Shown here in pieces: positions 1,649 to 32,188 of a stretch of DNA of 33,820 nt. How positions within the stretch are numbered: the first letter of the stretch is position 1; each line of letters begins with the position of its first letter. The position numbers were made by a program, and so were the translations under genes. Under the pieces are notes generated by a model. It was not told the DNA's origin. It worked only from the letters and a program-made list of their open reading frames with translations, and did not search any database. This stretch comes from an uncultured Methanosarcinales archaeon (GTDB lineage Archaea; Nanobdellota; Nanobdellia; Woesearchaeales; UBA119): positions 1 to 33,820 of the forward strand of contig CAZOKS010000002.1 in the NCBI GenBank assembly GCA_964580745.1, given 5' to 3'.

Positions 1649-4600
1649 CTACTTTATCTCGGTATAGAAGGCAACCTTGTCATTGTCGGGCCCGACCAAT
1701 TGCCCCAAAGTAGCGGGGATCCGAATCTCAAAGTCTCTTGTTTCATTATATCCTTGCTGGGATTTATTCACTACCGTTAAGAAGATCACATCCTGAACCT
1801 CTGAATAAGTTGTTCCCCCATCGCTAAAATCCCATAAAATGCCCGTCTTGAAACTAGTGGAATTTGTGCTATTGACTACAGGGATATTTGTAATCTCTTG
1901 ATTATATACCTCCAGCTCTATTGTCTCCTTTGGATTTCCATTCTCCAGATATGTGGCATTAACAGAGTCAAAAAAAGTTGAGGAATTCAATGCATTATCC
2001 AACTCGCCAAAGTCCTCAATCCGTTCATTGCCCGAAGTGTCTCTCCCCAATGCTTGTAGGGATTGCCAATTAACATCCGCATCATAATCCGAAACATATA
2101 TGTTGCTTCCTGTTGAGTTTGCCACTTGCCATTGGAATATACCCTCCAGCTCTTCATCCTCAAGGGTTATCGTATCATTTGTCTCTCCTCCTGCATAATG
2201 CCAGAACTCTACTGTAATCGATTTAGAAGCATTGTTATTTGTCTCGTTCTCTTCCTCTATTTCGTTGCTTGGGTCCACTACTACAAAAATATCATTTGTA
2301 CCGAGCTCTGCAGTGTATTCAACACTCACGTTCTCCGATTCCAATGCTGTCAGGTTTATCGTTTGATTGCTTCCAATTTGGCTTCCGGAACCTCCAATCT
2401 CATTCTCCCAGAACTGAACAGTAATGTTCTTTGCATCTCCTCCGCCTATATTAAATACAGTCGCGGTAATATTCACAATTGAACCCTCGCTTGGCGAATC
2501 ATCACTGAAAAAGATGTTTGAAGAGTTAACCTCTAAATCAGGATAAGGTGAATAAAACAGATATGTCTCGCTCTGCCCTATATTTGTTGCATTATCAATA
2601 CAGCTTACATTCCAATAATGAGGCCCTCCCTCTAAATCGACCACACTCACATTCTCCTCGCTTCCATTTAACACCAAGATGTTCTGTTCGATAATCTCCC
2701 CATCCAATGTCAAATTGCAAATAAGCGACTCAGCCATGTTGTCCTCAACACTAAAGTTTAGGTTTGTAGTATCCGTGTCAATGGAAGAATCATTCTCAGG
2801 ATATGTAAGGTTGATACTTGGCTCAACAGTATCATAATAAACAATTATAGATGAAGAATTTTGTGCATTCAGCGCATTATCCTTTGCCTCAACTTTTATC
2901 TCGTATGTCCCATTCTGCAACCCAAGAAGATTCGCGCTATCCTCTGAATTGTTTCCTGAATTGCCCTCTGAATTGAAAGAATCATTCACATACACCGTAT
3001 AGTTAATAGGATTTGCCATATTGTCTTCAAGGATGAAGGAAATAGAAGGATTAGAATTAAACCAGGTATGATTTACAGTGGTAATGGTGCTGCTGGGTTC
3101 AACCAAATCAACATACAAAACCCTCTCAGAACTGATACCATATGCATGATAAGACGAATTGTCATAGCATTCTATTTGCCAGATATTTGTGTTGTTCATC
3201 CCTGAAACAGTAAAGGAATTCTCGCTGTTGTTTATTATGTTAAATTTAGTATCCTTTATTGCCCCATTCAAAACAATGGAACAATTCTCGATTCCGGTAT
3301 CATCAGTAACATTAAATCGAAATGTATTCGTATCTTGATTGCTCCATGTCAGATTCTTAGGAGACGTCACTTCAATCACGGGCGGAAAAAATACATTAAA
3401 TATCCTTGTTTCCGATGTGTTTGAGTTGTTTGCTTCATCAAAGCAGGTAACATTCCATAAGTGCTCTCCTTCACTTAGGTCCGTAGCCAGATATGAATTT
3501 TCCTCTCCCACATTCACATTACTCAAACCCTTATCTTCACCATCTAATGTAATATAACAGTCCGCAACAGACGCAAGGTTATCATAGACAGTATAATTCA
3601 AACTTACATCTGAAGTAGAAAAGTTTTCCTGATTAGGAGGATAATTAAGCTCAATGCTTGGCTTTTCAGTATCAATGTATATTATTTTAGAGGAACTGTT
3701 TTCCTTATTGCTCGCATCATCCTCTCCTTCTAAAACCAATAAATACTCACCATCCGGTTGAGTGTTCAAGGTAATGTTCTCAATAGAGTTGTTGCTAACA
3801 TATCCCTGATTCTCGGAACTTCCATTAATGTATAAAGTATAGTTGAGAATACTATCTAAGCTATCTATTATTCTAATGCTGATATTAGGTGCCGAGATGT
3901 TGAACCAGCTCTCGTTTGCTGTTAAAATCTCGCTTGTTGGAGCATTGGTATCCAGTGTAATATAAAGCTCACTTGAATTCTTTCTTCTATCCAAATAATC
4001 TAATCCTTCCACAAAAATAGTATTCAGACCCTCGTTCAGGTTAACACTGATGTTTTCTGAAACACCATCTATCCCTTCCCCTTCTTCTCCACTGAACATA
4101 TCATTCACATAAATTGAATAGTTTATTGCGCCGCCAGTATAATCATGGAGCGTAAAATTTAAATCCACATTACTGCTATTGAAAACGCTTTCATTCTCAG
4201 GAGAATTCCATTCCACCCACAACACAGATATGTTTAGTGTAGCATTATTATTAGATTCATTCAATTCATTTATGCTGTTTGAAGGATCTGCCGAAACAAA
4301 TACCACATGCATTCCTTCAGTAATGTTCCATTCTATATAAAATAAGGAAGAGTCATTATAAGCCACATTCTTCTGATCGCTTCCAATCAAGCTGCCCCCA
4401 TCATCAGGCCTTCCATCCCAGAACTCCACCTCAACATTGGAGGCATCTATACCTCCGATATTAGATACATTAGCAGTTATGTTTATCGTATCATTTATGC
4501 TTGGGTTTGTGTTATTGAAACCTATCAAAGACGCATTAATGTAAAGATCAGGCTGGTTGACAACAAAACGCCATGTCACCGAATAATCAGTATTGTTCAA

Positions 4601-15600: not shown

Positions 15601-16744
15601 TTTCGCCAGGACCCACATTCGGCCCAAAATCCGGTCCCACATTTTGTTCCGCGGGCGGGCTGTCATACTCTTTCTGCTCGACCTCCAGCTCCATGATAAT
15701 ATTATGCATGGTTGAATTGCCTTCCGGAATCGTGATATTGCTTTCATATACCTGATAGTTCTCCTTTATCGCGATTATCTGCGTCTCGCCCGCCCGCGTT
15801 GTCAGATTGTAAAAACCCTTCTCATCCGTAACCGTGGATTTTGGGCCGGATGTTATCAGCACATTCTCTAATGGATTCCCGCTTATATCAGTTACAATTC
15901 CATAAACTATTCCTTTTACATATGGTTCTTCTTGCCCCGAAATACAAACATTTGTAGGGTCTATGAAAACATAGTATTTTGTGGTTTGATTGTTGTGAAC
16001 AGGCAGGAGAAACTGGTAGTTGTAGTATCGATTGGTAAACCCCTTAACTAATCTCTCATTCAAGATGGTAACCACGACAGGATTCCCATTGCTGTCCTTC
16101 AAAAGGCCTGTTTTGAATGTGCCCTCTTCAGTGCCACTTCCTACTTTGGTTGTCGCAGCAGGTATGTTGTTGATGGTTTTGGAGCCAATCTCTATGCTCA
16201 TTGTCCCGGTAAAGGTATTGGAAGCAGAATCATAGTCATCTGGGTTCGAATTTATGAAGGCATTAACCTCGGCAGGAGACATTGGAACAAGGTCTTGCAC
16301 AACTATTTCTTCAGGAGGTACGGTAGATGCAAACAATAGGTTGTCTTTTCCTTCTTCTACACAATCAAAGAACATATTGGCTTCTTCTGTTCCCCCCGGC
16401 TCAAATGTGTATTCCCATGGCTGAGAAAAACCAACGCCAAATGCAGCACCGTATAAGGCAACCCAGTTGTATGTTGGTCTTGTGTATATAAGATTCATAT
16501 TATAGATATAACCGCCTCGCCCTTCATGATATATTATAAAACCGGTTATTCCTTCACGCCCTAAAAAAGAGGCTGTGATTAGGATTATTGCGCATACAAC
16601 AAGAGATATGATTATCGCCCAGTTCCTTTTACTATCCCTTTTCCTTTTATCTCTTTCATCTAGGAATTTCTCAAGGGCAGGCTCTCTTTCTATGAGATGT
16701 TCAATATCCTTATTTATCTGCTGCGGTTTTTTTATCCCAACCAC
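12635..16744 (-). CDS. Two-TM membrane protein (1369 aa): large ectodomain, cytoplasmic HerA/FtsK-superfamily P-loop ATPase, low-complexity linker and two conserved tail modules
   Basis: GTG start at 16744, directly after an in-frame TAG.
- Basic N-terminus.
- TM1 at aa 42-62 (16559-16621).
- Ectodomain with a carboxypeptidase-regulatory-like beta-sandwich (GIVYGIVTDISGNPLENVLITSG..TDEKGFYNL, about 15690-15930).
- TM2 at aa 618-638 (14831-14893).
- Walker A GSTGGGKS (14648-14671).
- Walker B LCLVYDE (14279-14299).
- Further context: VIVFDPTAQW, MLISQ, NTEIQMRTRD.
- Coiled coil, then a K/E/D/G-rich linker (about 12888-13295).
- Tail modules at about 13296-13560 and 12638-12887. Confidence 0.9.
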   Translation of the reverse strand: MVGIKKPQQINKDIEHLIEREPALEKFLDERDKRKRDSKRNWAIIISLVVCAIILITASFLGREGITGFIIYHEGRGGYIYNMNLIYTRPTYNWVALYGAAFGVGFSQPWEYTFEPGGTEEANMFFDCVEEGKDNLLFASTVPPEEIVVQDLVPMSPAEVNAFINSNPDDYDSASNTFTGTMSIEIGSKTINNIPAATTKVGSGTEEGTFKTGLLKDSNGNPVVVTILNERLVKGFTNRYYNYQFLLPVHNNQTTKYYVFIDPTNVCISGQEEPYVKGIVYGIVTDISGNPLENVLITSGPKSTVTDEKGFYNLTTRAGETQIIAIKENYQVYESNITIPEGNSTMHNIIMELEVEQKEYDSPPAEQNVGPDFGPNVGPGEIPYRKERPSEIEGKEFWISVNKIYKKIRLAEFAQEVIHIQSFKNKGIQLQFNITGDVKKITMMDKRGTFIGAKDLDDLTLTFFGNSTPGVYNGTLNITGGINTTIPIIIEILGKEKSPVQAMLMEISVPEKNYYPGSFVRFKNSLTNLLTDQQYPVQLVYTIQNINGNETLWTHQTNVFLRTSLSIIKNYELPPDLPTGEYIIRASASYLDLTSSTSAVFTVTEPFYQHLLFGKIRVWQAILMGIGLALLIFGIFMLRKEIEAKKKYHLKVEYSQLPKPGPDTIYVGKIAETNNRTYFKIENFKTHTIVAGSTGGGKSFAAQVIIEELLDKDVAVIVFDPTAQWTGFLRKLENKGLLNLYSGFGMKPNDAKAFKGNIREITDAKEIINIKKYMKPGEIQVFALHKLDPKDIDVFVANTVREVFHEGFDESQELRLCLVYDEVHRLLSKFGGSGEGFIQIERACREFRKWGIGVMLISQVLADFVGQIKANINTEIQMRTRDEGDLERIKTKYGDEVLKSLVKASVGTGMVQNSAYNRGRPYFVTFKPIKHSVERLSDEEIEKYNEYNDIIDQMQFELEQLEQLDQDVFDLKLELKLALDKVKAGGFNMAKIYLDGLKPRVEKLWKKLGKKPKKLERPKVSEEEMRRELEKAKKEREKIEAEQKKGDEEGKKKEGESEKSVTERFNRDVKPENMLKLNNGMLVVNPRDLYAEIEAMKDSDFKFHVNDEKNDFADWIRNAVGDDELADLLDETKDRKEILELLDKRSKGEKLPKKEKGKDDKKKNESKEDDGKDGEDGKGEENGEDRKEGKDDEESDTVSEEKGDEGENNENREDRKEEKDGGKEKGEEDRENKEEGKEREEKEGKSNNKEAGEEGEGNVDETTKEKNKDDTLESPESKNNLEGLLNKKAPKGKEFRFSDGKVASNLKELKEILKDMPDETFRKYVNEEKHDFSNWIKYSLEDEEFAERIGNLMKKDKLVEALSNGPGNE
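15959..16468 (-). other. Ectodomain segment (aa 93-262) of the ATPase protein carrying the unnamed module shared with the giant adhesin and the small secreted proteins
   Basis: TYNWVALYGAAFG...NLLFAS...DDYDSASNTFTGT.SIEIGSKTINNIP...GTFKTGLLKDSNGNPVVVTILNERLVKGFTNRYYNYQFLLPVHNNQTTKYYVFIDP. Compare FKTGILWDFSDGG..VIFLTVVNKSQQGYNETRDFEIRIPA..FYTEIK at the giant C-terminus. Confidence 0.6.
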
Positions 16745-19900: not shown

Positions 19901-20131
19901 TTCTGCTGTTGGTTCGTTGTTTGTTTCGGGGTTGTTTGTTGTTTCATTGGTTTTAATTGTTTTTGCTGATTCATTGGTTTCATTGGTTTCATTTGTTGGG
20001 TCTAAGGTATCAGCCCCTATAACTATGTCCATTTCAATGGCAAAGCCCACAGCAAATACCGCAGCAATCAGCAATATCATTATGCTGGTATTAAAGATAT
20101 CCCAAAACCCAAATCTCCTCTCCTTTTTCAT
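16934..20131 (-). CDS. Bitopic surface protein (1065 aa): Ig/PKD-like and carboxypeptidase-regulatory-like domains, extracellular coiled coil, C-terminal TM and helical cytoplasmic tail
   Basis: Domain order:
- N-terminal signal/anchor (IMILLIAAVFAVGFAI).
- PKD-like GGIPGYHYSWILENGTRIEDKNLEIKYDEKGNYGITLEVKDSEGN (about 18790-18985).
- ITIRVKDSNGKAIESAYVDFGDRSGYTKDNGEIKLKV (about 18565-18775).
- One Ig repeat like those of the giant protein (KYEWKIECDSGND).
- Coiled coil.
- Juxtamembrane TIVFSENL...ITGA.
- TM PIFGIILVSVVIAIYLIFS (about 17345-17405).
- ~136-aa helical tail.
The start overlaps the upstream RHH stop as ATGA. Confidence 0.9.
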   Translation of the reverse strand: MKKERRFGFWDIFNTSIMILLIAAVFAVGFAIEMDIVIGADTLDPTNETNETNESAKTIKTNETTNNPETNNEPTAEWIDKYGPEDGSSFIYEPNKKFVLWSVWNISNGGEPNGPIGPDGEAINEDIEWTYSYNTITDDNLYNFSCTTPEIPSGNYTWSLSFLLDVLDETYSTPTFKFEVKRAEPNIEFSISENIIYEGDSIEINAKNNNPEGKIYLLINGSIINDSYVSSESISVNHTFSEKGEYLIEIVYNGSENYEEKRIEKEIGVLPLVFSLELNKENYTIGEEGYFKITAPNGSNANIEFCGPEYMAGQTWITCSNIYTLNKETYPLIKSLGSLNTTGEYSINATISHQNKTYKIGKSFVVSNNLQIEIEGKLDVLVGEELELEASASGGIPGYHYSWILENGTRIEDKNLEIKYDEKGNYGITLEVKDSEGNSKTKQIAVDVDDWREITIRVKDSNGKAIESAYVDFGDRSGYTKDNGEIKLKVPLGEHTLRVEKKDYEAYRRAIEVKEKQTIDVVLQLDNSLREKLNQIVLFQPKDESSFDYQDITFLASVSSAEDAECTIFLKPSKSDWFEEIKSFDVEENYVAELTKTLDKGKYEWKIECDSGNDTFSSEIASFEVEKDNTASVQQSDTEKSSKEEQTDGSIDAGSLRTKIEEGFENLNGLDLQSKSAAEALSVKQDLERTLQTFERKIRDLNNLQYRKDLSNDEKKKKAEEYQAELKELEKNTISTLKVEKTESYVSYPKQQELVSIANQYIKEKGILGKVDEEKLKELQNKLSVETKASHVTLQFLDNHTEEITLVEKVITYSGADHTRVFILENISKGFAETTNAITFVSSQETIKKDPLVKFELKDKIIYYTDEFKDFESIKESQTIVFSENLISTDKGGNLITGAFSLPDVDFTSPIFGIILVSVVIAIYLIFSTEVGENILSVAKRRKKKQLAQIRSLINDALDYLQEGNLERANMVFKEIKLIYEKMPQRIKEDAYEEALSIHDKINKAYLLKMIDKTAEEIRDDKQIDKIERMRELNEAYDLLNDADKKELKEEVEDLLKILNNQSIE

Positions 20132-20394
20132 TTTAAAGTCCTCAACGATTCTTTCAACTCTTTGAGTAATTGTTCGTTTCTTTCCAACATCGCTTCTAAT
20201 TCCTTTGCTTTTTTGGATGTGTTTTCGCGCTTTTTTGGAGTAAGAAGCCTTCGTTCTTTATCTTCGAGGAATCTCTTGTTTAAGACCGCCCTAATCTGTT
20301 CTGAAATATCCATATAAAAGTTCTTCTCGCTTAATGATTTCAATCTTCTTGCTAATCCAGCGGGCATTCTTATGCTAACTAAAGTGTCATTCAT
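20128..20394 (-). CDS. Ribbon-helix-helix DNA-binding protein with coiled-coil C-terminal extension (88 aa)
   Basis: LVSIRMPAGLARRLKSLSEKNFYMDISEQIRAVLNKRF fits the RHH strand plus two helices. There are ATGA overlaps with both neighbours (20391-20394 and 20128-20131). Confidence 0.8.
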   Translation of the reverse strand: MNDTLVSIRMPAGLARRLKSLSEKNFYMDISEQIRAVLNKRFLEDKERRLLTPKKRENTSKKAKELEAMLERNEQLLKELKESLRTLK

Positions 20395-20582
20395 TTCAGC
20401 GCCTCCTCTTCTTTTCTTATTCTTTTGTCATCCTTGTTATTACTTTCTTCCAACACATATTCTCTAAGGAAAGCCCTTATTGCTTCAGAACGAGATTTGA
20501 ACAAACCTTCTTTGATTAAATCATCTAACCAATTCACAATTTTTCTTGGAATTCTGACATTAACTGTTTCTATCTTAACCAT
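20391..20582 (-). CDS. Ribbon-helix-helix (CopG family-like) DNA-binding protein (63 aa)
   Basis: VNVRIPRKIVNWLDDLIKEGLFKSRSEAIRAFLREYV is a textbook CopG/NikR-N-terminal-type RHH pattern. It is the first gene of the minus-strand train. Confidence 0.85.
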   Translation of the reverse strand: MVKIETVNVRIPRKIVNWLDDLIKEGLFKSRSEAIRAFLREYVLEESNNKDDKRIRKEEEALK

Positions 20583-20832: not shown

Positions 20833-21816
20833 ATGACTCACCCTATACTGAAAGTGCAAGGTTTGAGAAAGGCCTTTAGAAAACTTTTAGTTCTAAAAGG
20901 CGTTTCTTTCTCTCTTGATGAAGGAGAGGTTTTTGGGATCATTGGAGAAAGCGGCGCTGGAAAAACTACTTTACTTAGCTGTATTATTGGACTTCTTAAG
21001 CCAGACAAAGGTGATGTTAAGTATTTAGTTCAGAGAAAGCGATTCCCAAATTATGAAAAACAGGAATTCCGTTCGGTCTTCAAACACAGGAAGGATTTCA
21101 AGGATTTCTTTGGTTTTGCTGCCCAGACCCCCAGCTTTTATGATAAAATGACTGTTTACGAAAATCTGATGTATTTTGGAAAACTGTATAAGCTTTCCAA
21201 GAGCACATTAAAATCAAATATTGATACCCTTTTGGAGCTTATGTCTCTCTCTAAATTCAAGGATGTTTTAGGTTGTAATCTTTCGGGTGGGATGAGAAGA
21301 AGATTGGATATTGCTTGCGCACTCATCCACAACCCGAAACTCCTAATCTTGGATGAACCAACATCCGATTTAGATCCTTTGCTTACAGAGAAGATATGGA
21401 CTCTTGTCAGGAAGGTAAATAAGGCAGGCACGACCATTCTTCTTTCCAGTCATTCGGTAAATGACCTTGAGCGGGTATGCTCTAAGGTGGCTCTTCTTGA
21501 GAAAGGGAAGATAAAAGAAAGTGGTTCCCCTGCTGAGTTAAGGGAGATGTTTTCTAGAGGTCATAAAATAATCCTGAGAACTAGGGAAGGGAACTACCAG
21601 CCCTTACTCAAAAAAGTTGGGGAACGGTTCAGGCAAAATATACTTATGAAGGATGTGAATGAATATCATAATGGGATCGTGGAGGCGGTCTTTATATGCA
21701 AGGATCCTCTTAAGATAATGAATTATATTAAAAAGCAGATAGAAGAGGACGATGACGAAATAATTGAGCTGAAACTCAAGAATCCCTCCTTAGACCAGGC
21801 TTTCCTTAAGGAGTAA
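20833..21816 (+). CDS. ABC transporter ATP-binding protein (327 aa)
   Basis: Walker A GESGAGKTT (from 20944), ABC signature LSGGMRRRL, Walker B LLILDEPTSDLD, H-loop LSSHS. There is an extra ~100-aa C-terminal domain. Confidence 0.93.
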   Translation: MTHPILKVQGLRKAFRKLLVLKGVSFSLDEGEVFGIIGESGAGKTTLLSCIIGLLKPDKGDVKYLVQRKRFPNYEKQEFRSVFKHRKDFKDFFGFAAQTPSFYDKMTVYENLMYFGKLYKLSKSTLKSNIDTLLELMSLSKFKDVLGCNLSGGMRRRLDIACALIHNPKLLILDEPTSDLDPLLTEKIWTLVRKVNKAGTTILLSSHSVNDLERVCSKVALLEKGKIKESGSPAELREMFSRGHKIILRTREGNYQPLLKKVGERFRQNILMKDVNEYHNGIVEAVFICKDPLKIMNYIKKQIEEDDDEIIELKLKNPSLDQAFLKE

Positions 21817-21918: not shown

Positions 21919-23604
21919 ATGATACCCTTTACAATTTTTTTCAAGAACCTCAGAATTCTTTTTAGATCTTGGGGTTCTGCACTAATAGTTCTGATAGCTC
22001 CGCTTCTACTTGTTTTAATAATAGGGGTAAGTTTATCATCGCCAAGTTCGGCTGGTCTGAAGATTGGCTATTCTGGAAATGTTACTGGAGAGCTTAATCA
22101 AAGGATAATTGAAAGTTTAAACTCTACTGAAAATGAATTGGTTTATTTCGCTTCAATCCCCTCTTGCAAGAGAGCCATAGAATTAGGAGTTGTGAGCGCA
22201 TGTATTGATATGTCCCCAAACTTATCTTTAGACCCAAATTCTGAAAATTTCTTGGATTTCTATGTGGATGAATCAAGGATGAATCTTGTTTACCAAATAA
22301 TCAGCTCTCTTACTGCAAATATACACTCTGAGAGTGCTGAGATTACAAAAGAGATTGGCACTAAACTCTTATCAATACTTCAAACCTCTCAAAGATTGGT
22401 GGATGAGAGCATAGCTCAATTGGAATCTTTAAAGCAACAGTTGAAAGAGAATAAAGCCACTGCTTCAAGAATAAGCAGGCAGTTAGACTCCCTGAATATC
22501 CCGGATATGAATCTAGATATATCTCATTTAAATTCAGATGTAAAAACATTAGAGGATTATCTTTATTCTGTTAGAAAAGCTAGCAAAGAAGTGGTGGATA
22601 CTGCTGATGATGTTCTTCCCGGCCAGAATAATTCTGAACTTGATGACTTGGAAGAAGAAATAAACAATTTGGAAGAGGAGTGGAGAAATACAATATCTTA
22701 CTTTACTTATGCCACTTCATTGCACAAAGGGATTAATTCCGCTCAAGGTAAGATAGATAGTGTTGAGAGGCAGATTGAGGGCTTGAAAGAGGACAAAGAG
22801 GAGCTTCACAACCTTATTCGAGACTTAGAAGCTGGCTTAAAGAAAGAGGAAACCATGATTTCTTCGATAGATGAAAAACAATCATCTATCTCTGGTGAAG
22901 TTGAATCCTTTAAAGTCACCAATCCTGAACTTATTGCTACCCCTGTGAAGATGAATATTACATCAGTAAATGCTGATAGGAGAAAACTTGTTTATACTTT
23001 TCCTTATCTTCTTATGCTTGTTGCACTCTTTGTGGGGATGATGCTTCCAAGCACATTGCTGCTTATGGAGAGGAAGTCTAAGGCATTCTTCAGAAATTTT
23101 GTTACCCCTGTAAGATTATCCTTCTTTACCTTTATGACATATATCACATCCATTGTCTTAATTTCTCTGCAGTTGTTGGCAATATTCCTCGTTGCTTACT
23201 TCTATTTAGACCTCTCAGTGATAACCAATCTTGTTCCTACCCTTCTTGTTTTGTTTCTCACGATCACAGTATTCTCTCTTTTGGGCATATTTCTCGGGAA
23301 TATATTTAATACATTTGAAGGCATTACAATGATTTCCATTACACTTGGCTCAGTATTCCTATTTCTTTCTAATCTTGTGCTTTCCCTAGAGAATCTTTCT
23401 CCTCTTGTCCAGCGCATAGCTCATTTCAATCCTTATGTGATAGGCTCCGAAGCCCTTCGACGCTCGTTACTTTTCGGAGATTCTGTTTCTTCAATATTCC
23501 CTTCATTGGCACCCCTCTTTTTTTACATAGGAGGCTTAATTGTTCTTGTCATTCTATCTTTAATTCTTATAAAATCTCGGTACTTCTATCTTGCTCGGGG
23601 TTAA
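21919..23604 (+). CDS. ABC-2 type permease with 1+5 TM topology and a ~310-aa extracellular coiled-coil insert (YhgE/Pip-like architecture)
   Basis: N-terminal TM (ALIVLIAPLLLVLIIGVSL), a helical and heptad-rich stretch at about 22050-22985, then five C-terminal hydrophobic helices. It lies immediately downstream of the ABC ATPase. Confidence 0.85.
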   Translation: MIPFTIFFKNLRILFRSWGSALIVLIAPLLLVLIIGVSLSSPSSAGLKIGYSGNVTGELNQRIIESLNSTENELVYFASIPSCKRAIELGVVSACIDMSPNLSLDPNSENFLDFYVDESRMNLVYQIISSLTANIHSESAEITKEIGTKLLSILQTSQRLVDESIAQLESLKQQLKENKATASRISRQLDSLNIPDMNLDISHLNSDVKTLEDYLYSVRKASKEVVDTADDVLPGQNNSELDDLEEEINNLEEEWRNTISYFTYATSLHKGINSAQGKIDSVERQIEGLKEDKEELHNLIRDLEAGLKKEETMISSIDEKQSSISGEVESFKVTNPELIATPVKMNITSVNADRRKLVYTFPYLLMLVALFVGMMLPSTLLLMERKSKAFFRNFVTPVRLSFFTFMTYITSIVLISLQLLAIFLVAYFYLDLSVITNLVPTLLVLFLTITVFSLLGIFLGNIFNTFEGITMISITLGSVFLFLSNLVLSLENLSPLVQRIAHFNPYVIGSEALRRSLLFGDSVSSIFPSLAPLFFYIGGLIVLVILSLILIKSRYFYLARG

Positions 23605-23697
23605 TTTCCTGACTTTTGATGTTCTCGTATATATCTTCTACTATATGGAGTATTCATTAGTAAGAACAAAACGTATTTTAGTATGTTTTTCCGAAAG

Positions 23698-23706
23698 TTT
23701 TATATA
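23698..23706 (+). promoter_or_regulatory. TATA-like box TTTATATAT upstream of the secreted-protein operon
   Basis: Preceded by a purine-rich CGAAAG (BRE-like). It lies ~115 nt upstream of ATG 23821, and GAGGTGG sits 6 nt before that ATG. Confidence 0.3.
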
Positions 23707-23820
23707 TCAGTATGCTTTTAGGTATACTAACAGTCAGGTTGGAGGATGAGAAGACATCCGTGAAGTTGTTTGAACAGCTTGACTTGGTATCAAAGGTTTG
23801 ATGGTTGAAGAGGTGGAATT

Positions 23821-24582
23821 ATGGAAACAAATAATTGGAAAGTGTTGGTAGTTACAATGCTCTTAGTAGGGGTTTTTTCTGTAGGCTTAGCTCTTGCAGA
23901 GAATGTGCCCCTTGGTGCTGAGAGTGCAAATGTTGTTCGTTCTGAAACATCTAATGCTAGCTTATATACGCCAGATTCGGTGGATGCAATTGCAGGAAAC
24001 CTGACAGAGCTTAATATAACAGGTGTGGCTCAGACAAAATCTTGGCAGGGTTTCTACGGTAATGTTTCTGGTGAAATAATCTTGGCTGATTCCTCCGGAT
24101 ACAGGTTTTATGATTGGTCTGTTGCAGAACCTCAGGGAGAGGTATTTGCTTCGGTAAACGACACAATAACTTGGACAGACATCAACTGTGCTCCAATCAG
24201 CGATGATTCTACCTATCGGACAAATTGGTATAGTTTTTATGGCATGGCGGAAAGCGACTATGATGACATAAATGATACATATAACTTTACAAATCATCCT
24301 GAGTTTTATGTTGGCTTTTCAACTTTGAATAACTGCCAGACAGCTTATACATTTGTGAATAATGTAAGCCAAAGCACGGATTTCCCAGCAGTCCTGCTTG
24401 CAAGTGATTCCAACTCCACTTTGATATTTACTTCTATCCTGGAAGATAAAACAGCAGGTCAAAGACAAGGAATCACAGGCTACGATGGACAGAACTATGA
24501 TTTTCAGGTTTTGGTAGCAGAGAATGGCCAACAAGGTAATAGTCAGGTAACACCTTATTACTTTTGGCTGGAGATAGAGTAA
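23821..24582 (+). CDS. Small Sec-secreted protein (253 aa), stand-alone copy of the unnamed module
   Basis: Signal peptide VLVVTMLLVGVFSVGLALA/E. Body: SWQGFYGNVSGEIILADSSGYRFYDW...GEVFAS...DYDDINDTYNFTNHPEF...DFPAVLLASDSN...YDFQVLVAE...TPYYFWLEIE(stop). Confidence 0.88.
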   Translation: METNNWKVLVVTMLLVGVFSVGLALAENVPLGAESANVVRSETSNASLYTPDSVDAIAGNLTELNITGVAQTKSWQGFYGNVSGEIILADSSGYRFYDWSVAEPQGEVFASVNDTITWTDINCAPISDDSTYRTNWYSFYGMAESDYDDINDTYNFTNHPEFYVGFSTLNNCQTAYTFVNNVSQSTDFPAVLLASDSNSTLIFTSILEDKTAGQRQGITGYDGQNYDFQVLVAENGQQGNSQVTPYYFWLEIE

Positions 24583-24647
24583 ACCCTCTATCTTTTTGTT
24601 TTATTTTTTCATGTGTATATTTATATTGAAGGTCGGTGGTGTATAAA

Positions 24648-25424
24648 ATGAACAACAACTTAAGAAAAACCCAAAATAAGGAAGGGCATTCCATTGTAAA
24701 CAGAAAAGGGTCTTATGTCCTTATTGCGGTAATGTTTGCTTTTATCATAATAAACTCTTTGCTTAGTTATGTTAAGGCTGAACCTGCTGGGATGACTATT
24801 TCAAGCAATGTTACGGAATCCAAACAAACGACTTCGCCAGATAATCGATCTGATGAGGGAGGAACTATAACAACTCTTGGGGTTAATGTACTTCAACAGA
24901 ACCAGTTCTGGAAAGCATATGTAGGAAACATTACCGGTAAATTTATCTTAGAAGATGCCTCTGGCTTCTCAATCTATGAATGGCCTATTCAGTCTGCCGA
25001 CCTTACTGGAGAGGTTTATGCTTCAAGGGAAATGCAGCCAAACTGGACTGCTATAGAATGTTCAAATGACACTGTTCTCGCAAGCGAGGATACATTTATG
25101 GGCTTTAATTCAACTTCAGTTTACAGTATAAATAGAACATTTAATGAATCAGAGCATCCTAAGCTGGAAATAGGTTCAGTAACAATATCTGCTGACCAAT
25201 GTAGGAGCACCAGCACTTATGTGAATGATACCGCTCAAGCCCAGGCTTCTGCAAGCTTCCCGGTGGTGTTGTTGGCTGCTGATACAAATGTGATTTATGC
25301 TTCCCCAATAAACCAAGGAAGCGATAGCTTCCATAATGGAACCAAAGTAGACTTCCAGTTGATGATACCAGATAAGGACCAAGATACAACGACTTATTAC
25401 TTTTTCGCGGAGATTGCTCAATAA
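24648..25424 (+). CDS. Small Sec-secreted protein (about 258 aa), paralogue of 23821-24582
   Basis: The ORF opens at GTG 24636. I prefer ATG 24648, which is 7 nt after GGTGGTG. Signal peptide YVLIAVMFAFIIINSLLSYVKA/E. Body: FWKAYVGNITGKFILEDASGFSIYEW...GEVYAS...SINRTFNESEHPKL...SFPVVLLAADTN...VDFQLMIPD...TTYYFFAEIAQ(stop). Confidence 0.88.
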   Translation: MNNNLRKTQNKEGHSIVNRKGSYVLIAVMFAFIIINSLLSYVKAEPAGMTISSNVTESKQTTSPDNRSDEGGTITTLGVNVLQQNQFWKAYVGNITGKFILEDASGFSIYEWPIQSADLTGEVYASREMQPNWTAIECSNDTVLASEDTFMGFNSTSVYSINRTFNESEHPKLEIGSVTISADQCRSTSTYVNDTAQAQASASFPVVLLAADTNVIYASPINQGSDSFHNGTKVDFQLMIPDKDQDTTTYYFFAEIAQ

Positions 25425-25455
25425 AGGTAATCAAGTCTCATTGAGGTATGTAAAC

Positions 25456-26355
25456 ATGATAACTCGTTTAAAAACAAACAAGCTTTGGCAGATGGGAGTG
25501 ATAGGGTTTCTTTTTTCTCTATTGTTCCTTTTTCCTTCTTTTGTTAATGCTTATAACTACGAACACGTTAATGTTACCTCTACAGTGAATATAACAGATT
25601 CCATGCCTGAGATTTTAAGCATTGACTCTGAGCAAGACATAACTTTAAATGCAGGAGCTAACACTACAATTACCTGCAATGTTACTATTAGAGATTGGAA
25701 TGGATTCAACGATATATCAAGCGTAAATGGTACTTTTTATTATTACCTAAACGAATCCTCAGATCCTGACCATAGAAATGTGCATTATACAAATTCCAGC
25801 TGCGCAGAAATCAGCAATGATGGTGAGTTTCTGGCTAATTATACCTGTTCATTCGCTTTGGCTTATTTTGCCAATAATGGAAGCTGGGAGTGTAATGTAA
25901 CTGCAGAAGATACATTTGGCTTTACTGACTCTGCTAACAATACAACAAGCATAAACGCCCTTTATGCTTTGAACGTAACGGATGTTATTGACTTTGGCGA
26001 TTTGGCTGTTACTGAAACGAGCAGTAATATAACCGTTAACATCACCAACTTCGGCAACATGGACATAAATGTAAGTGTTCTGGGTTATGGTCAGACTGAA
26101 GGAGATGGTATCGGCTTAATATGTGAATATGGCAATAACATCTCCGTGGAAAATGAAAGGTTCTCAGGATATCAAGTGCCTTGGGATAATAAAGTCCCTC
26201 TTGATTCAATAGCCCAAGACATGAATATAACAATCCCTCAGGCAACTGAGGAAAGCAACCCCGAGATTTGGACATCTTATTGGCAGTTATATGTGCCCCC
26301 AAATCCATATGGGGAATGCAACGGTACCATAAGATTCACGGCGACTGCCCCTTAA
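25456..26355 (+). CDS. Secreted two-beta-sandwich protein (about 299 aa), function unknown
   Basis: The ORF opens at TTG 25414. I prefer ATG 25456, 8 nt after GAGGT. Signal peptide GVIGFLFSLLFLFPSFVNA/Y. It contains two Ig-like halves: ITLNAGANTTITCNVTIRDWNGFNDIS and VIDFGDLAVTETSSNITVNITNFGNMDINVSVLG. Confidence 0.8.
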   Translation: MITRLKTNKLWQMGVIGFLFSLLFLFPSFVNAYNYEHVNVTSTVNITDSMPEILSIDSEQDITLNAGANTTITCNVTIRDWNGFNDISSVNGTFYYYLNESSDPDHRNVHYTNSSCAEISNDGEFLANYTCSFALAYFANNGSWECNVTAEDTFGFTDSANNTTSINALYALNVTDVIDFGDLAVTETSSNITVNITNFGNMDINVSVLGYGQTEGDGIGLICEYGNNISVENERFSGYQVPWDNKVPLDSIAQDMNITIPQATEESNPEIWTSYWQLYVPPNPYGECNGTIRFTATAP

Positions 26356-26839: not shown

Positions 26840-29800
26840 TTAAAACCTCTCCTTTACTTTATCTAAGAAAGCAGTCCTGTCTTTGGCTTTGTTGAGTTCT
26901 TGAAAAGAATCTTCCATTCCGAAAACATCCCTCAGCCAAACAGCAAAATCATTCCTCACTCCTGAATTATTATCTTCTCTTACATGCTGGAAAAAGATTT
27001 CATCATTCATTTGTTCAAGCTTATCAATCAACTCTGATATGCTTCTAATTATATCCCCGTTTGCAAGTCTGAATTCCTTTCCTTCAGGGGCTTTAATATC
27101 CCTGTGCTTCATTTCTTCTTCTCTGCTTTTTTCTTCCTGGCTTTCCCTCTTTCTTTCTCCCTTTTCCTTTTCTTTCTTATCTTGAAGCTCTTTCTCTTTC
27201 TTACCTGCAATGCCTTTCTTTACCAAGAGCTTTCTTTTATCCAGTCCAAGCTTGGATTTTCTTTCCTTTTCTTTTCTATATTTGGATTCGTTATTCTCTT
27301 CAATCTGTTTAAGCGCTTTGAGTATATATCTCTTGGTGGTCTCGGCATGTTTTTCAGTATTGATAGCCAGAATCTCCTTGCAAAGCGATTGAATCTTCTT
27401 TGCATGCTCCTTAATCGTCTCACTCTCATTTAACCCAACTTCGTCCTTGTCTTTGAGCTTATCCTTATATTCTGCTAAATATGAATATATGCTGATTATT
27501 GGATGTTCCTCATTTATCTTAATCATTATATCACCCCTATCAAATGTGTGTTTATTTGCCTTTATGTAAGTAGAATAATTTTCTATCATCTTATGATACT
27601 CTTCCTCTTTTTTCCTTTCCCCTTTTTCCTCTTCTAAATCTTTTATCTTTAATTTTCTGTCTGATTCTCTTCTATCATCGCTTTTCTCATACCTTTTTAT
27701 CTTAGAAGTATAACCCTCCTTGCTTACCATAAAAATATAATAAGATAGCAAAGCAGCGGCAATTACCATAGCAACAATCATAGGGATGAATAAAGGATGA
27801 AATCCTTCTTCTTTCTCCCCTTCTTCCTTCGTCTCCTTCATGCTTGCTCCTGTTATTGGATTGTCCTTCTTTGTTATAATCTTCAGCAACTCATTGTTAA
27901 AAACAATGGTCTTGGTCTCTTTAAGTTCAATAGGTTTGATTTCTCCTTCAATATAGTATGCAATTCTTATACTAGTTAGCTTGTTCTTATTCCAGCTATA
28001 GAGATTGTTCTTTACAACCTCTTCTCCATTGCTGAGAAGGGTAAGTCCTTCCATCTTCGCTTCAAGATTTGGAGGCAGCCATTCTAGGATTATGGCTTCT
28101 GAAATTGTTCTTGAAGCACTAATCTCTTTATCAACCATCAAATAATTCCTTGATTCATTTCCAAAAGTACCTATTGTAATCTCAAGTATTTGACTCTTTA
28201 CCGTTATATCATCTTGTGCTTTTTCCACTTGGGAAATTATATCTTCATTTTCCTCAATACCCTTCTCTGAAAGATATTCCCTAAAAACCAAAGAAGTCTT
28301 CTCGTCATTAATTTCCTCTTCGTACTTTTCGGCGTCATCAATAGATATATGCTTAGAACAGCTTGCCCAAGCATTTTCTGCTTCTTCCAAAGCAGCTTTG
28401 GTAACCCTGTCAAACTCATCTTCACTTAGACTCTGGTTTTCAAGCTTCCTCATCTCTTTCCTCAAATCAGATATGCGTTGTTCAGCACCCTTTAGTTTTG
28501 CTATTATGTTGAAATTTTCAAGAACCCTAATCTTATCCTCTTCTTTTATTCGTTGAAATTCCTCAATCTTGCCCTTGATGTCAAGCAACCATTTATCCAT
28601 CTGAGACAGCATCCCATCCAATTCTGTTCTTAGTGTCGGCTTTAACTTTTCTTCTTTCTCGGTTTCTTCCTCTTCTTTTTCTCCTTCCTCTTCCGCCTCT
28701 TCTTTTTGTTCCTCAGGTCGGAATGTTATGAATACCTCCTTTGAAAGTTCTCCTTCATTTCCTGCTTCATCAACAGCACTTACTCTATAATAATATGCCT
28801 TATTGTATTCTACATCCTCATCATAAAAATATGTCTTGCTTGTAGAATCATAGTAATCAATTAATCCAGTTCCTCCGCTTCCTTCCCTTCGATATATCTT
28901 GTATTCATCTATGTCATCCCCGTCTCCATAATTCCACACCAACCTAACTCGAGTTTGCTGGTTCTCTACCCTCAAACTTTCAATCCTCTCAGGCGCTATT
29001 GTATCCACCAAAAAGATTTCTCCTGATTCAATCTCTTTTCCTTCCAGGCCTGTTAAATCTCTACCCTTGAAGTTGAAACTGCCAATCTTTTCAATATCAT
29101 CTTCTCTTATTACCAAATATCCTTCCCAGAATCTTCCTTCTCCTACTAGATACACAGGTTTTGGTGTTTTATCATTGTCAAATACATAGGTTAGCTCAGG
29201 GGCTGAGGAAAGCGGTTCAGAAGCGCTTAATTCTACCTCAACCCTGCCCTCTTTTAATGGAGGTTTAGGATGGAGACTTATGCTTGCACTTGGTGGGAGG
29301 TTAACCTCAAAGTCGACCTTAGATGGCTCTTCCATATAATTCCCACATTCATCAATGCATCTAATAAACATAGAATAAGAACCCTGGCTTAATTCCCCTA
29401 ATCTTGCTTTATATAGAGTTTCATTCTTCTCGACAAAACCAAATCTCATATCCTCGAAGCTTTTATTGGAGAAATCATACTTGCATTCATAAGGAGCATT
29501 AACCTGACTGAAGGATATGTTTATGGTTGTTTCTTTGGAATAAATCTCTTGATTATAATATACCTTTTCTATGGATAGCTCGTCGTTTATCCTATTTACC
29601 GTTATATTAACATCTTTCTTATCAGTTGAGTTATCATCCTTGCCAGTTATCTCAACCACATAGTTTTTCTTGTTTGTTCCTTTTTCACAAAAATCTTCAA
29701 CCAAGAATGTTAGATTAGCATTAGTATTGTTTATTTTGGTTATGTTAGCAAATTCTGAATTCTCGCTGAAACTGACATTGCCACTGACATTATAGGCTTT

Positions 29801-30013
29801 AATACTTATCTCAAGGGTTTCATTCTCTTCAATCTCATAACTGGAATTAGAAACATTTAGTTCTAGCCCTAAACTATAAGATGAGAGAAGGGCTACCAAG
29901 ATAAACCCAAAGCACAAAATCTTCAAATCCTTTGTTACTCTTTCATTCCCGGTTTTATTATTCCATCTCATCTTAGTTTTCAAGTTTATCGATTTTATTC
30001 TTGTTCTCGTCAT
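26840..30013 (-). CDS. Bitopic surface protein (1057 aa): Ig-like and FN3 domains, extracellular coiled coil, TM, K/E-rich cytoplasmic region and conserved tail module
   Basis: Domain order:
- Signal/anchor ILCFGFILVALLSSYSLG.
- FN3-like LRVENQQTRVRLVWNYGDGDDIDEYKIYRRE...YYYRVSAVDEAGNEGELS (about 28728-28998).
- Coiled coil.
- Juxtamembrane TIVFNNELL...ITGA.
- TM FIPMIVAMVIAAALLSYYIFMV (about 27727-27805).
- C-terminal EGKEFRLANGD...ELIDKLEQMNDEIFFQHV....NDFAVWLRDV (about 26843-27097).
An alternative start is ATG 29971 (M15), 1 nt after the RHH stop. Confidence 0.9.
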   Translation of the reverse strand: MTRTRIKSINLKTKMRWNNKTGNERVTKDLKILCFGFILVALLSSYSLGLELNVSNSSYEIEENETLEISIKAYNVSGNVSFSENSEFANITKINNTNANLTFLVEDFCEKGTNKKNYVVEITGKDDNSTDKKDVNITVNRINDELSIEKVYYNQEIYSKETTINISFSQVNAPYECKYDFSNKSFEDMRFGFVEKNETLYKARLGELSQGSYSMFIRCIDECGNYMEEPSKVDFEVNLPPSASISLHPKPPLKEGRVEVELSASEPLSSAPELTYVFDNDKTPKPVYLVGEGRFWEGYLVIREDDIEKIGSFNFKGRDLTGLEGKEIESGEIFLVDTIAPERIESLRVENQQTRVRLVWNYGDGDDIDEYKIYRREGSGGTGLIDYYDSTSKTYFYDEDVEYNKAYYYRVSAVDEAGNEGELSKEVFITFRPEEQKEEAEEEGEKEEEETEKEEKLKPTLRTELDGMLSQMDKWLLDIKGKIEEFQRIKEEDKIRVLENFNIIAKLKGAEQRISDLRKEMRKLENQSLSEDEFDRVTKAALEEAENAWASCSKHISIDDAEKYEEEINDEKTSLVFREYLSEKGIEENEDIISQVEKAQDDITVKSQILEITIGTFGNESRNYLMVDKEISASRTISEAIILEWLPPNLEAKMEGLTLLSNGEEVVKNNLYSWNKNKLTSIRIAYYIEGEIKPIELKETKTIVFNNELLKIITKKDNPITGASMKETKEEGEKEEGFHPLFIPMIVAMVIAAALLSYYIFMVSKEGYTSKIKRYEKSDDRRESDRKLKIKDLEEEKGERKKEEEYHKMIENYSTYIKANKHTFDRGDIMIKINEEHPIISIYSYLAEYKDKLKDKDEVGLNESETIKEHAKKIQSLCKEILAINTEKHAETTKRYILKALKQIEENNESKYRKEKERKSKLGLDKRKLLVKKGIAGKKEKELQDKKEKEKGERKRESQEEKSREEEMKHRDIKAPEGKEFRLANGDIIRSISELIDKLEQMNDEIFFQHVREDNNSGVRNDFAVWLRDVFGMEDSFQELNKAKDRTAFLDKVKERF

Positions 30014-30299: not shown

Positions 30300-32081
30300 A
30301 TGAACATCTTGAAGGGAAGAATGGGGTTTTTGGTATTGATGGTTCTTTCTGTTAGTTTGTTAACCCCTGGTGTTTTTGCGGCTCCAAGATTAATAGCTAA
30401 TTCCGCAGATTGGAAGGATGTTTATTCAACCATGCTTTATGGAAGACTCAAGAATTATGAAACCAGTTTCTTGACTAGCACGCCCCATGCCAGGCTAATC
30501 CTGAATACAATCCCTCATGATGTTGAAGAGATTGTAGTTCATAGTTCTATTAGAAATCCCTTTGTAAATAACTATGAAAGCATACTCCTATCTGAGGGAT
30601 TTGATAACGTTGAGCAGATTCGTTCTAATAACTTTAATCTTGAGCTTTTGGATGACTTGCCTGATATTACAAAGTTTATTATTATAGATCCATCTTACGG
30701 TTATAATGCTATCTCTGTGGCTCCCTTCGCAGTTTTAGGGCATTATTATGTCTTGTTTGTTGATGAAACCAATCTTCCAAGGGTTGATGCTGCTCTATCT
30801 GCCAGAACTGTTCATGAGATTGTTCTTTATGGGATCTTAGATAGAACTGTAAGAGACACATTTTCAAGATATAATCCTATCGTAATAAACACAGGAGACC
30901 GTTTTGATAATAATATTGAGATAACTAAGATGTATCAAGAGCTTCATAAAGATATAAGAGGAGCTCCTAGGAAACAGGTTTTGCTCACAAACGGCGAGTT
31001 TATAGAAGCCAGTTTCTTCACAGGAGCAGACCCTGTTTTGTTTATCGGCTATTCTAATGTGCCTGAGCAAGTAAGGGAATACCTTAAATCCAGTGCTTTT
31101 GAAGTAGGTACCTTGATTGGCAATGAGTTAATAGGAACAGGCACTTTTGTAAAAAGACAGACAGGTCTAAGTGTATTTGTAAAATTTGGGCAGGGTGCAA
31201 GATCCCCCTCAGGTCCTGTTGCCCGAGTAGAAGATTTAGACCGATTCCCGCTTCCAGTTTATAACCTTAACCTTGATGTGGTGTCAGCTACAATAAATAC
31301 AGCTACCCAACGATTAGAGATTACTTATCAGAATCTGGCAGAGATAGGTAGTTATTTGCAGAATATCCTGCTCAGGCTTAACATAGATGATGAGTCCTAT
31401 GTTATCCCTGATGATTCAGATCCTATCTTCATAGATGGAAATTCTTTCAAGACCTTAGTTTTTGAGTTGAAGGATGCTGAGGGTAATGATATACCTTTCC
31501 AGGGCTCTAACAACATAACCTTAGATGTTAGCGCAATCTATGGAGAATCTTCAAAATCACTTGAGCAAACATTGGATAAAACACTTGTTGTGGAAAAAGT
31601 TACTGTTATGGATGAGGCTTCTATAGAGCTTCTTGATGCTGTTTATTCCAAGAGGGATAAAGGATTCTATATCACTGTAAAGAATATTGGAACAGTTGAA
31701 GCATATGCTGCTGCTGAGATATACGACTTGTATGTGAATACTCTGTATGGTGTTTATGGCTCAGAGAGAACCATCCTCCTCAAGAAAGGAGAAACTGGAA
31801 AAATCTTTGTTCCTGTTGAACTTGTGGAAGAGGATATTGCCAACAATGAAAAAATCAATGTGAGAGTTCTATATGGGCAGAGGGAGAATGCCTTAATTAA
31901 AAGTGTGAGTGGGGTGTTTGAGTTTAAGTATTCCTCGCCAGACCTTGCGGTGTATGTTCTAATAGCACTTGTTGTGTTGCTCTTGCTCCTACTTTTCCTC
32001 AGGAAGAAATGCAAAAACTGCGGCTACAAAAACCCAATCTTGAGAAAGACCTGTAAGAAATGCAAGGAACCATTAAGATAA
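30300..32081 (+). CDS. Membrane-anchored surface protein (593 aa): three CWB2-like repeats, CARDB-like modules, TM and cytoplasmic zinc ribbon
   Basis: Signal peptide FLVLMVLSVSLLTPGVFA/A. Three ~100-aa units resemble cell-wall-binding repeat 2: FIIIDPSYGYNAISVAPFAVLGHYYVLFVDETNLPRVDAAL..EIVLYG; QVLLTNGEFIEASFFTGADPVLFIGYSNVPEQVREYL..VGTLIGNE; plus a more divergent first unit. A CARDB-like FYITVKNIGTVEAYAAAEIYDLYVN follows, then TM LAVYVLIALVVLLLLLLFL, then CKNC..(10)..CKKC at 32010-32063. Confidence 0.85.
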   Translation: MNILKGRMGFLVLMVLSVSLLTPGVFAAPRLIANSADWKDVYSTMLYGRLKNYETSFLTSTPHARLILNTIPHDVEEIVVHSSIRNPFVNNYESILLSEGFDNVEQIRSNNFNLELLDDLPDITKFIIIDPSYGYNAISVAPFAVLGHYYVLFVDETNLPRVDAALSARTVHEIVLYGILDRTVRDTFSRYNPIVINTGDRFDNNIEITKMYQELHKDIRGAPRKQVLLTNGEFIEASFFTGADPVLFIGYSNVPEQVREYLKSSAFEVGTLIGNELIGTGTFVKRQTGLSVFVKFGQGARSPSGPVARVEDLDRFPLPVYNLNLDVVSATINTATQRLEITYQNLAEIGSYLQNILLRLNIDDESYVIPDDSDPIFIDGNSFKTLVFELKDAEGNDIPFQGSNNITLDVSAIYGESSKSLEQTLDKTLVVEKVTVMDEASIELLDAVYSKRDKGFYITVKNIGTVEAYAAAEIYDLYVNTLYGVYGSERTILLKKGETGKIFVPVELVEEDIANNEKINVRVLYGQRENALIKSVSGVFEFKYSSPDLAVYVLIALVVLLLLLLFLRKKCKNCGYKNPILRKTCKKCKEPLR

Positions 32082-32188
32082 CTCTTGATTTTCTATTTAC
32101 TTTGTTGTTCTTGAATTGAGCCGAAGAAATAAGCAAAATATTTAAATTGTCTTACTCATGTTTTCTGAGTATACTCTGGTATCTGAAA

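Follow-up and report, generated by a model that had tools for sequence, protein, structure and literature searches.

In the Pap and Fim subunits of chaperone-usher systems the chaperone grips the free carboxylate of the C-terminal strand, and tip adhesins of the FimH/PapG type carry their pilin domain at the C-terminal end. Other surface proteins are retained by shared modules, such as CWB2 in the cell-wall proteins of Clostridioides difficile, or SLH. Among Archaea, taf-like clusters encode two to three small subunits secreted by the Sec pathway, a two-domain protein of about 300 amino acids (aa) and a regulator (Galeva et al. 2025, PMC11821415). Here we analyze two tandem genes, A and B, of a tiny DPANN archaeon, Woesearchaeota-like and of the symbiotic type, which encode secreted paralogues with a conserved motif at their extreme C-terminus. 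They lie in a stretch of 33,820 nucleotides (nt) with about 38% G+C (positions 1 to 33,820 of contig CAZOKS010000002.1, assembly GCA_964580745.1; hereafter the window). We know of no cultured member of Woesearchaeota or Pacearchaeota.

What is new is the family to which A and B belong, the strict C-terminal placement of its domain, the cassette A>B>C formed with a third gene, and the recurrence of the domain in giant proteins and in an ATPase of the translocase type. In this one neighbourhood the domain thus occurs in three roles, as paired subunits, as the end of a giant protein and as the outer domain of an ATPase. We propose that it serves as an extracellular docking or assembly module of a DPANN surface structure, a function to which we give about an even chance of being right.

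The taf-like/DUF1102 clusters of Thermococcales, Archaeoglobus and haloarchaea resemble this cassette in layout. Both have two to three secreted subunits of 150-250 aa and a two-domain beta-sandwich protein of about 300 aa, often accompanied by a small helix-turn-helix (HTH) regulator and sometimes by a membrane-anchored terminal protein, and both are archaeal and do not depend on type IV pilus machinery. However, we found no likeness of sequence or fold between them, and A and B always form two subfamilies in a fixed order, with a domain model that is complete. Neither a TafD-type peptidase nor TafG (DUF5305) was seen among the cassette-adjacent genes that we read, where no search was aimed at either.

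Chaperone-usher systems (FimH, PapG, CfaE, CsuE) are similar only in how they work: there too the assembly domain stands at the extreme C-terminus, also in adhesins enlarged by N-terminal domains, and the chain finishes, at its free carboxylate, in a conserved C-terminal strand rich in aromatic residues. Unlike them, the archaeon has no outer membrane or usher, the predicted fold of A and B is not immunoglobulin (Ig)-like, no PapD-like chaperone was identified, and the A/B domain has an internal copy, in the ATPase. As with CWB2 of C. difficile and with SLH, one module is found both in a small main component and in many larger surface proteins with functional domains of diverse kinds, but there is no homology, and CWB2 and SLH are not strictly C-terminal. 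Signals of the PGF-CTERM, PEF-CTERM and LPXTG types are likewise conserved motifs near the C-terminus of secreted surface proteins; they are cleaved and followed by a transmembrane (TM) helix and a basic tail, whereas the A/B motif is a predicted strand of the fold. Finally, the ATPases of the HerA/FtsK/VirD4 type (CedD, TraD, HerA) have in common with the neighbouring ATPase the P-loop core, but the latter is of unusual architecture, with a TM segment, an ectodomain led by the A/B-like domain, a second TM segment, the ATPase proper, a coiled coil and two DUF5752-like motifs.

A large archaeal family of secreted proteins

A and B are paralogues, aligning by BLASTP at 30% identity over 254 columns (E=1e-32; coordinates in Table 1). 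The original prediction had described them as tandem secreted paralogues, and all the sequence blocks that it listed as shared lie inside this alignment. Both have Sec-type signal peptides with the A-x-A-like sites that it had pointed out, in which a hydrophobic N-terminal segment precedes A-L-A followed by E in A, and V-K-A followed by E in B. They are probably exported through Sec and cut after this site, and the N-terminus of the mature protein, [DE]-P-x-G, is conserved in the family. Removal of the signal peptide leaves both without a membrane anchor of their own. The open reading frame (ORF) of B also opens at a GTG at 24636 (262 aa), while public gene calls take the ATG at 24648 (258 aa).

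A word-indexed search retrieved 64 relatives for A and 134 for B. No Pfam domain and no informative name was attached to any of them, and the handful with a name are labelled Woesearchaeota, Nanoarchaeota or Nanoarchaeia. With a family profile, HMMER found at least 1,453 representative clusters (50% identity) at E<=0.001, of which 508 at E<=1e-30, and species-representative genomes contained 484 coding stretches of the family. The record titles of these 484 are almost all Woesearchaeota, Pacearchaeota or Nanoarchaeota, with a few titles of metagenome-assembled genomes giving other taxa. The family is therefore large and, by titles, almost confined to lineages of the Woesearchaeota/Pacearchaeota type.

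None of these searches led to a characterized family, in line with the original prediction, which had not recognized one. A and B gave nothing over noise against Pfam, NCBIfam and PHROGs. Among the 93 members of our alignment, no Pfam family was matched by more than three at E<=1, and the one match to Caf1 (E=0.05, in a single member) is noise. Queries of the sequences in PDB with single proteins or with the profile returned nothing better than E=0.6. Foldseek with the model of A, signal peptide included, gave best E-values of 0.7 in PDB and 0.08 in BFVD, with TM-scores of 0.1-0.2. A cluster look-up gave no name for either protein, and no description of the family was found in the literature on surface proteins of DPANN and Woesearchaeota, on HerA and on DUF5752; an analogy was provided by the paper on tafi alone (PMC11821415). 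By the sequence and fold searches made, A and B appear to belong to no described family. They would represent an apparently new fold used in secreted surface-assembly proteins, similar in operon logic and probable role to the archaeal cassettes that are not of type IV.

Predicted fold and conserved residues

The AlphaFold2 (AF2) model of A, built from the 93-sequence alignment, is confident (predicted local distance difference test, pLDDT, 90.3; predicted TM-score, pTM, 0.83) and has no detectable solved relative. Residues 6-23 form the helix of the signal peptide and residues ~27-74 an extended, confidently modelled N-terminal segment (45 residues at pLDDT 84-93); beyond residue 74 there are about 13 strands and two short helices. 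The mature chain is thus predicted to be one compact beta-rich domain with two short helices, a candidate new fold. Its last two strands are 228-233 (DFQVLV) and 247-252 (YYFWLE), both at pLDDT about 95.

Conservation was measured in 225 non-redundant small homologues taken from 84 loci, designated below by L numbers. C123 and C172 are invariant in 225/225 sequences and, given this invariance, probably form a disulfide. The proteins have a median of 9 N-x-S/T sequons, with the N81 sequon present in 85% of them, which suggests that A and B are N-glycosylated. The consistent differences between A-type and B-type sequences cluster at positions 56-66 and 76-79, a candidate A-B interface.

The invariant or near-invariant residues D90, D148, T153, H159, D227, Q229 and E251, together with secretion and a cysteine pair of the disulfide type, would also suit secreted enzymes or ligand-binding proteins (hydrolases, metal or sugar binders) without a role in assembly. 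We find this highly unlikely. No enzyme or binding family was matched by sequence or by fold, and a structural role accords better with the strict cassette and with the fusion to giant adhesin-like proteins. The ATPase copy of the domain has no equivalent of H159, and both diverged copies retain the acidic positions in the final two strands, a pattern more like that of a structural element or an interface.

A conserved motif at the C-terminus

The tail motif, T-x-YYF-[WYF]-[VA]-E-[LI], ends one residue before the stop in A (...TPYYFWLEIE) and two before it in B (...TTYYFFAEIAQ). In the 225 small homologues its positions are occupied by T (66-94%), Y (97-98%), Y (87-91%), F (96-98%), an aromatic residue (100%), E (86-98%) and L/I (97-99%), and 0-3 residues follow it: one in 104/109 A-type sequences, and one or two in 103/111 B-type sequences. 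The motif or a near variant lies 0-3 residues from the C-terminus in all 150 best representatives of the family. These include 26 multidomain proteins of 343-2359 aa, where the domain is always the last one. For 251 family ORFs the alignment to the profile extends as far as the domain's end; 247 of these terminate no more than 3 residues later, and the other four all belong to the ATPase class. The motif noticed in two proteins is thus conserved in their homologues, and the objection that it might not be, raised together with the original prediction, falls.

Two meanings had been suggested for the motif, a terminal beta-strand or an element for recognition or sorting. The AF2 model, where residues 247-252 form the last strand, supports the former, and the tail is very probably the terminal structural strand of the fold. 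The latter finds no support: the corresponding TTKYYVFID is internal in the HerA-type ATPase, and the tail is only one among equally conserved core blocks (P30, G59, W75, G80, W99, G106, C123, T153, C172, D227-F-Q). The mechanism behind the motif is ordinary, in that the tail is conserved because it is a core strand and not because it is a sorting signal. Since nothing follows it except one residue in A and two in B, the PGF-CTERM, PEF-CTERM and LPXTG types are excluded, as the original prediction had already argued from the lack of a TM segment.

That the motif is a signal for a dedicated machine of export or processing, either an ABC (ATP-binding cassette) transporter working in a type-1-secretion-like manner or a sortase-like enzyme, would account for its distance from the C-terminus in the 150/150 representatives and 247/251 ORFs, and ABC genes do stand immediately upstream of A at this locus. 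We regard this reading as scarcely credible, and as largely refuted already. A and B have Sec signal peptides, unlike substrates of type 1 secretion, and an ABC ATPase and permease adjoin them in only 2/84 loci, the window and L007, its relative at 81% identity, both of one lineage. The transporter belongs to the ABC-2/DrrA type, and neither a membrane-fusion partner nor a C39-peptidase partner was noted for it in the window. The motif itself is modelled as a strand and is internal in the ATPase class, and it lacks the TM segment and basic tail expected of archaeosortase or sortase substrates.

The description of the pair as lying downstream of an ABC exporter is accurate for this locus, where a 216-nt spacer separates them, but it does not extend to an association. 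None of five contigs looked up individually has an ABC gene beside the A/B pair, and in L055 an unrelated ABC ATPase stands four genes away. A functional link between A/B and the exporter was rejected on this synteny; the exporter is an incidental neighbour.

A cassette with a third secreted protein

ORFs called in the 84 loci were labelled by profile, with the A/B family, C and every large protein of the window as references. The scores separate the small proteins cleanly, with 125 of A-type (WQG[FY]YGN...) and 130 of B-type (WKAY[VI]GN...). A precedes B 85 times and follows it once, and B is followed by C 64 times. The conserved unit is the cassette A>B>C, the third gene of which the original prediction did not include.

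Protein C has 293 homologues, none with a Pfam domain, and is better conserved than A/B (mean column identity of 51% vs 30-40%). We rejected the idea that it is a third A/B paralogue (probability of 1.9% in a profile comparison). Its AF2 model is all-beta (pLDDT 92.8) and would consist of two tandem Ig/FnIII-like beta-sandwiches, with the split between domains read from the model. Foldseek returned 56 PDB matches at E<=0.001, including RbmA, CfaE, CsuE, SdrG, integrins and others. E-values of 1e-6 to 1e-4 were obtained for tandem-Ig surface proteins of a generic kind (RbmA, CfaE, CsuE, MSCRAMMs), and C, modelled as two consecutive beta-sandwiches, is of that type. The extreme C-terminus of C is conserved too (...C-x-G-T-[IV]-R-F-T-A-T-x-P, then the stop). 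C also has four invariant cysteines and many conserved sequons, and occurs in several copies per genome.

The cassette is found in three settings. In setting (i), a giant protein and a coiled-coil protein of about 300 aa with a DUF5752-like C-terminus precede A>B>C. In setting (ii), a winged HTH regulator of about 205 aa precedes A>B>C, and a TM-anchored protein of about 400 aa follows; it has a signal peptide, then repeats of a domain that by eye resembles Ig, and finally a C-terminal TM anchor and a basic tail. In L073 this self-contained cassette is followed by housekeeping genes (PIMT-like methyltransferase, SMC). A solitary extra B-type gene often lies upstream of the setting (ii) regulator. 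In setting (iii), a PKD protein, the HerA-type ATPase and a coiled-coil protein, in this order, precede A>B>C. Settings (i) and (iii) occur together in the window, on the opposite strand, and are set apart from the cassette by the inserted ABC genes. Three pairs of loci represent two cassettes on one contig (L007+L033, L010+L036, L012+L048).

This operon logic is like that of taf-like clusters (PMC11821415), and it suggests another reading, in which A and B are the subunits of a fibre held together by donor-strand exchange, in the style of tafi/DUF1102, of TasA and bundling pili, of threads or of chaperone-usher pili. A and B would make up the shaft and the TM-anchored protein the base, with C or the giant proteins at the tip. 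The C-terminal position of the domain in multidomain proteins, as in FimH/PapG-type tip adhesins, the presence of the tip adhesins CfaE and CsuE among the structural neighbours of C, and the TM-anchored protein with apparently Ig-like repeats that ends the setting (ii) cassettes all agree with it. We nevertheless judge it unlikely. The model of A has no PDB match in Foldseek at E<=0.001, and no TasA, bundling-pilus, thread or pilin entry is among the 50 matches listed, assuming that such entries are present in the copy of PDB searched. DUF1102, the family of TafA, is absent from the 25 Pfam families most matched by the 93 members, as are Peptidase_M73 (TasA/camelysin) and Fimbrial; no listed family connects A/B to TasA, camelysin or the bundling-pilus AbpA, and the TasA-like jelly-roll fold was not matched either, the best Foldseek E-value against any PDB entry being the 0.7 given above. 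In archaeal type IV pilins a short charged leader (class III signal peptide) is cut before a hydrophobic helix that stays in the mature protein. A and B differ in that the A-x-A site and the conserved [DE]-P-x-G come after the hydrophobic segment, and they have no Pilin_N match. Chaperone-usher pilins have an incomplete Ig-like fold, with a PapD-like chaperone and an usher in the operon; here no pilin is among the Foldseek matches, there is no chaperone or usher, and the organism is an archaeon. The monomer model is complete and implies no open groove, its N-terminal segment is too confidently modelled for a floppy donor strand, and the cassettes read showed neither a chaperone nor a dedicated signal peptidase of the TafD/SipW kind.

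Copies of the domain in a giant protein and in an ATPase

Beyond the two genes of the original prediction, the window encodes two diverged copies of the domain, so that one extracellular domain is found in four of its proteins: A, B, the tail of a giant surface protein and the first part of an ATPase ectodomain. In the giant protein, the A2 profile matches residues 2968-3132 (E=6.9e-11), within the last ~180 residues, and the chain ends in ...VAFYTEIK. Homologous giants in L015, L027, L056, L065, L070, L078 and L080 also end in the domain. The giant-protein homologue in L001 carries DUF2341 and CARDB.

The copy in the ATPase is matched by the family profile at E=2.5e-13 and, reciprocally, finds the small A/B proteins by phmmer with E-values down to 1.2e-11. 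Here the motif is internal, and a CarboxypepD_reg-like domain comes directly after it. The protein has a charged N-terminus, TM1 (43-63), an ectodomain of ~550 aa that opens with the A/B-like domain, TM2 (~617-638) and a cytoplasmic part made of a DUF87/HerA-type P-loop ATPase, a long charged coiled coil and two DUF5752-like motifs, FKFHVNDEKNDFADWI and FRKYVNEEKHDFSNWI. Further regions of the ectodomain look Ig-like by eye. Both DUF87 (E=1.7e-11, 45.1 bits for a cut-off of 23.2) and HerA_C (22.2 for a cut-off of 22) score over the Pfam gathering thresholds, which places the protein in the HerA/FtsK superfamily. In NCBIfam, CedD (4e-8), TraD (6e-7), HerA and TraC all score far below their cut-offs, so that it does not belong to CedD, TraD or TraC; HerA in PDB is matched at 3e-5. 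The ATPase is a member of the translocase superfamily that belongs to no named family, and its architecture is unusual.

The sharing of one module by small, abundant-looking proteins, giants and a membrane protein is also what a lattice-forming or surface-anchoring domain would show, either as a component of the surface-layer (S-layer) type or as a glycan-binding anchor. A and B would form or bind a layer of the envelope, and other surface proteins would be retained by the same module. The many conserved sequons and the lack of a membrane anchor in mature A and B agree with this, and their faster evolution relative to C fits an exposed layer. We do not think it a likely account, however, since several cassettes per genome, as in the three pairs of loci above, are unusual for a main S-layer protein, and neither Foldseek nor Pfam revealed any likeness to a known S-layer or carbohydrate-binding fold.

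In the reading that we prefer, that of a module for docking or assembly, A and B would form an obligate pair together with the tandem Ig-like C, and giant adhesin-like proteins would join the assembly by their own C-terminal copy of the domain. In setting (ii), found elsewhere, the C-terminally TM-anchored Ig-like protein could hold the assembly to the membrane. In the window, the copy in the ectodomain of the HerA/FtsK-type ATPase could do so instead. The free C-terminus is not required for the domain to exist, because the ATPase copy is internal. The C-terminal bias elsewhere suggests that the end of the strand lies at an interface, or at a place where an extension would clash.

Several observations weigh against this proposal. 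A strand with a purely structural role does not account for the strictly C-terminal position in every class but that of the ATPase. The AF2 monomer of A appears complete alone and demands no partner. D90, D148, H159, D227 and E251 are conserved and could equally belong to a site for a metal or a ligand, as in a binding protein or an enzyme. Finally, the lack of a known fold relative is provisional, since the Foldseek query included the signal peptide and the libraries searched were PDB and BFVD.

A more ambitious version would make A and B the repeating extracellular block of an apparatus that spans the envelope and is confined to Woesearchaeota and Pacearchaeota, built on a hexameric ATPase of the HerA/FtsK/VirD4 type and capped by giant adhesins. 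A and B, perhaps as rings or as a stalk and together with C, would be seated on the A/B-like ectodomain of the ATPase, the giants would plug in by their C-terminal domain, and the shared DUF5752-like module would tie together the cytoplasmic side. Such an apparatus could attach the symbiont to its host and move DNA or protein across the contact, but we find it decidedly improbable. The proteins described here are a testable parts list for a DPANN surface structure, and the domain is a marker for finding the associated giant proteins in metagenomes.

Table 1. Coordinates of the features described. Positions are those of the window, except where a locus is named.
Feature	Position	Strand	Basis or remark
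Protein A, A-type by profile score, 253 aa	23821..24582	+	ORF; 64 homologues; AF2 model
Signal peptide of A, residues 1-26	23821-23898	+	Mature remainder is a single domain
Tail motif of A, T244-P-Y-Y-F-W-L-E-I252	24550..24576	+	Stop after one more residue; predicted last beta-strand (E247-252)
Protein B, B-type, 258 aa from ATG	24648..25424	+	P0212, the public 258-aa gene call
Signal peptide of B, residues 1-44	24648-24779	+	
Tail motif of B, T-T-Y-Y-F-F-A-E-I	25389..25415	+	Stop after two more residues
Protein C, secreted, 300 aa from ATG (ORF opens at TTG 25414)	25453..26355	+	B>C adjacency
Diverged A/B domain, extreme C-terminus of the 3,151-aa giant surface protein (ORF 1649-11104)	1652..2203	-	hmmsearch
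Diverged A/B domain, residues ~70-263, just after TM1 of the 1,369-aa ATPase (ORF 12635-16744)	15956..16537	-	hmmsearch
Self-contained cassettes of setting (ii)	L073 2066-6454; L031 9345-13831; L050		
ABC ATPase, DrrA-type	20833-21816	+	Pfam ABC_tran, 6e-32
ABC-2 permease, ~330-aa coiled-coil outer loop between TM1 and TM2	21919-23604	+	Pfam ABC2_membrane(_3)
Candidate archaeal BRE (transcription factor B recognition element)/TATA element, AAAGTTTTATATAT	23694..23707	+	Putative, read from the sequence
A-B spacer: T-run TTTTTGTTTTATTTTTT (24593-24609), then TATA-like TATATTTATATT (24616-24627)	24593..24627	+	Putative, read from the sequence
DUF5752-like motif	C-termini of 26840-30013 and 12635-16744	- (both)	
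DUF5752-like motif, other loci	L001 6749-7657; L003 2171-2869		

Neighbouring genes and spacers

The DUF5752-like motif, HV....NDFa.Wi..vF, is common to the cytoplasmic end of the ATPase, to a 1,057-aa fn3/TM protein and to coiled-coil proteins of about 300 aa, which in many loci lie directly upstream of A. On the cytoplasmic side it may correspond to the shared extracellular module. No mention of DUF5752 was found in the literature searched.

A module of three genes on the plus strand, encoding proteins of 593 aa (30300-32081), 237 aa (32147-32860) and, in the next ORF, about 550 aa, adjoins A>B>C in many loci and has no family in Pfam, NCBIfam or PHROGs. In L003, the protein homologous to the 593-aa one resembles, by eye, a cell-wall-binding-repeat-2 sequence (YNALAVAPFA...). 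Scans of the window for tRNA and Rfam families found none. The ABC-2 permease, found only here and in the closest relative, L007, has weak matches to EzrA, SMC and the SagH permease.

About 110 nt upstream of A, inside the spacer that follows the permease gene, lies the TATA-like AAAGTTTTATATAT. In the spacer between A and B, the T-run may act as a partial terminator and the TATA-like TATATTTATATT, 21 nt upstream of the ATG of B, as a second promoter, in which case A would be the more abundant transcript.

On the minus strand, two small ORFs (20128-20582), one for a CopG-type ribbon-helix-helix protein of 63 aa and one for a protein of 88 aa, head the string of genes that includes the PKD protein and the ATPase. 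Both L034 and L036 have homologues of the 88-aa protein upstream of the PKD protein, and small genes annotated as HicB lie upstream of the fn3-type protein of ~1,000-1,100 aa in L001, L004 and L006. These small ORFs are likely regulators of the surface locus.

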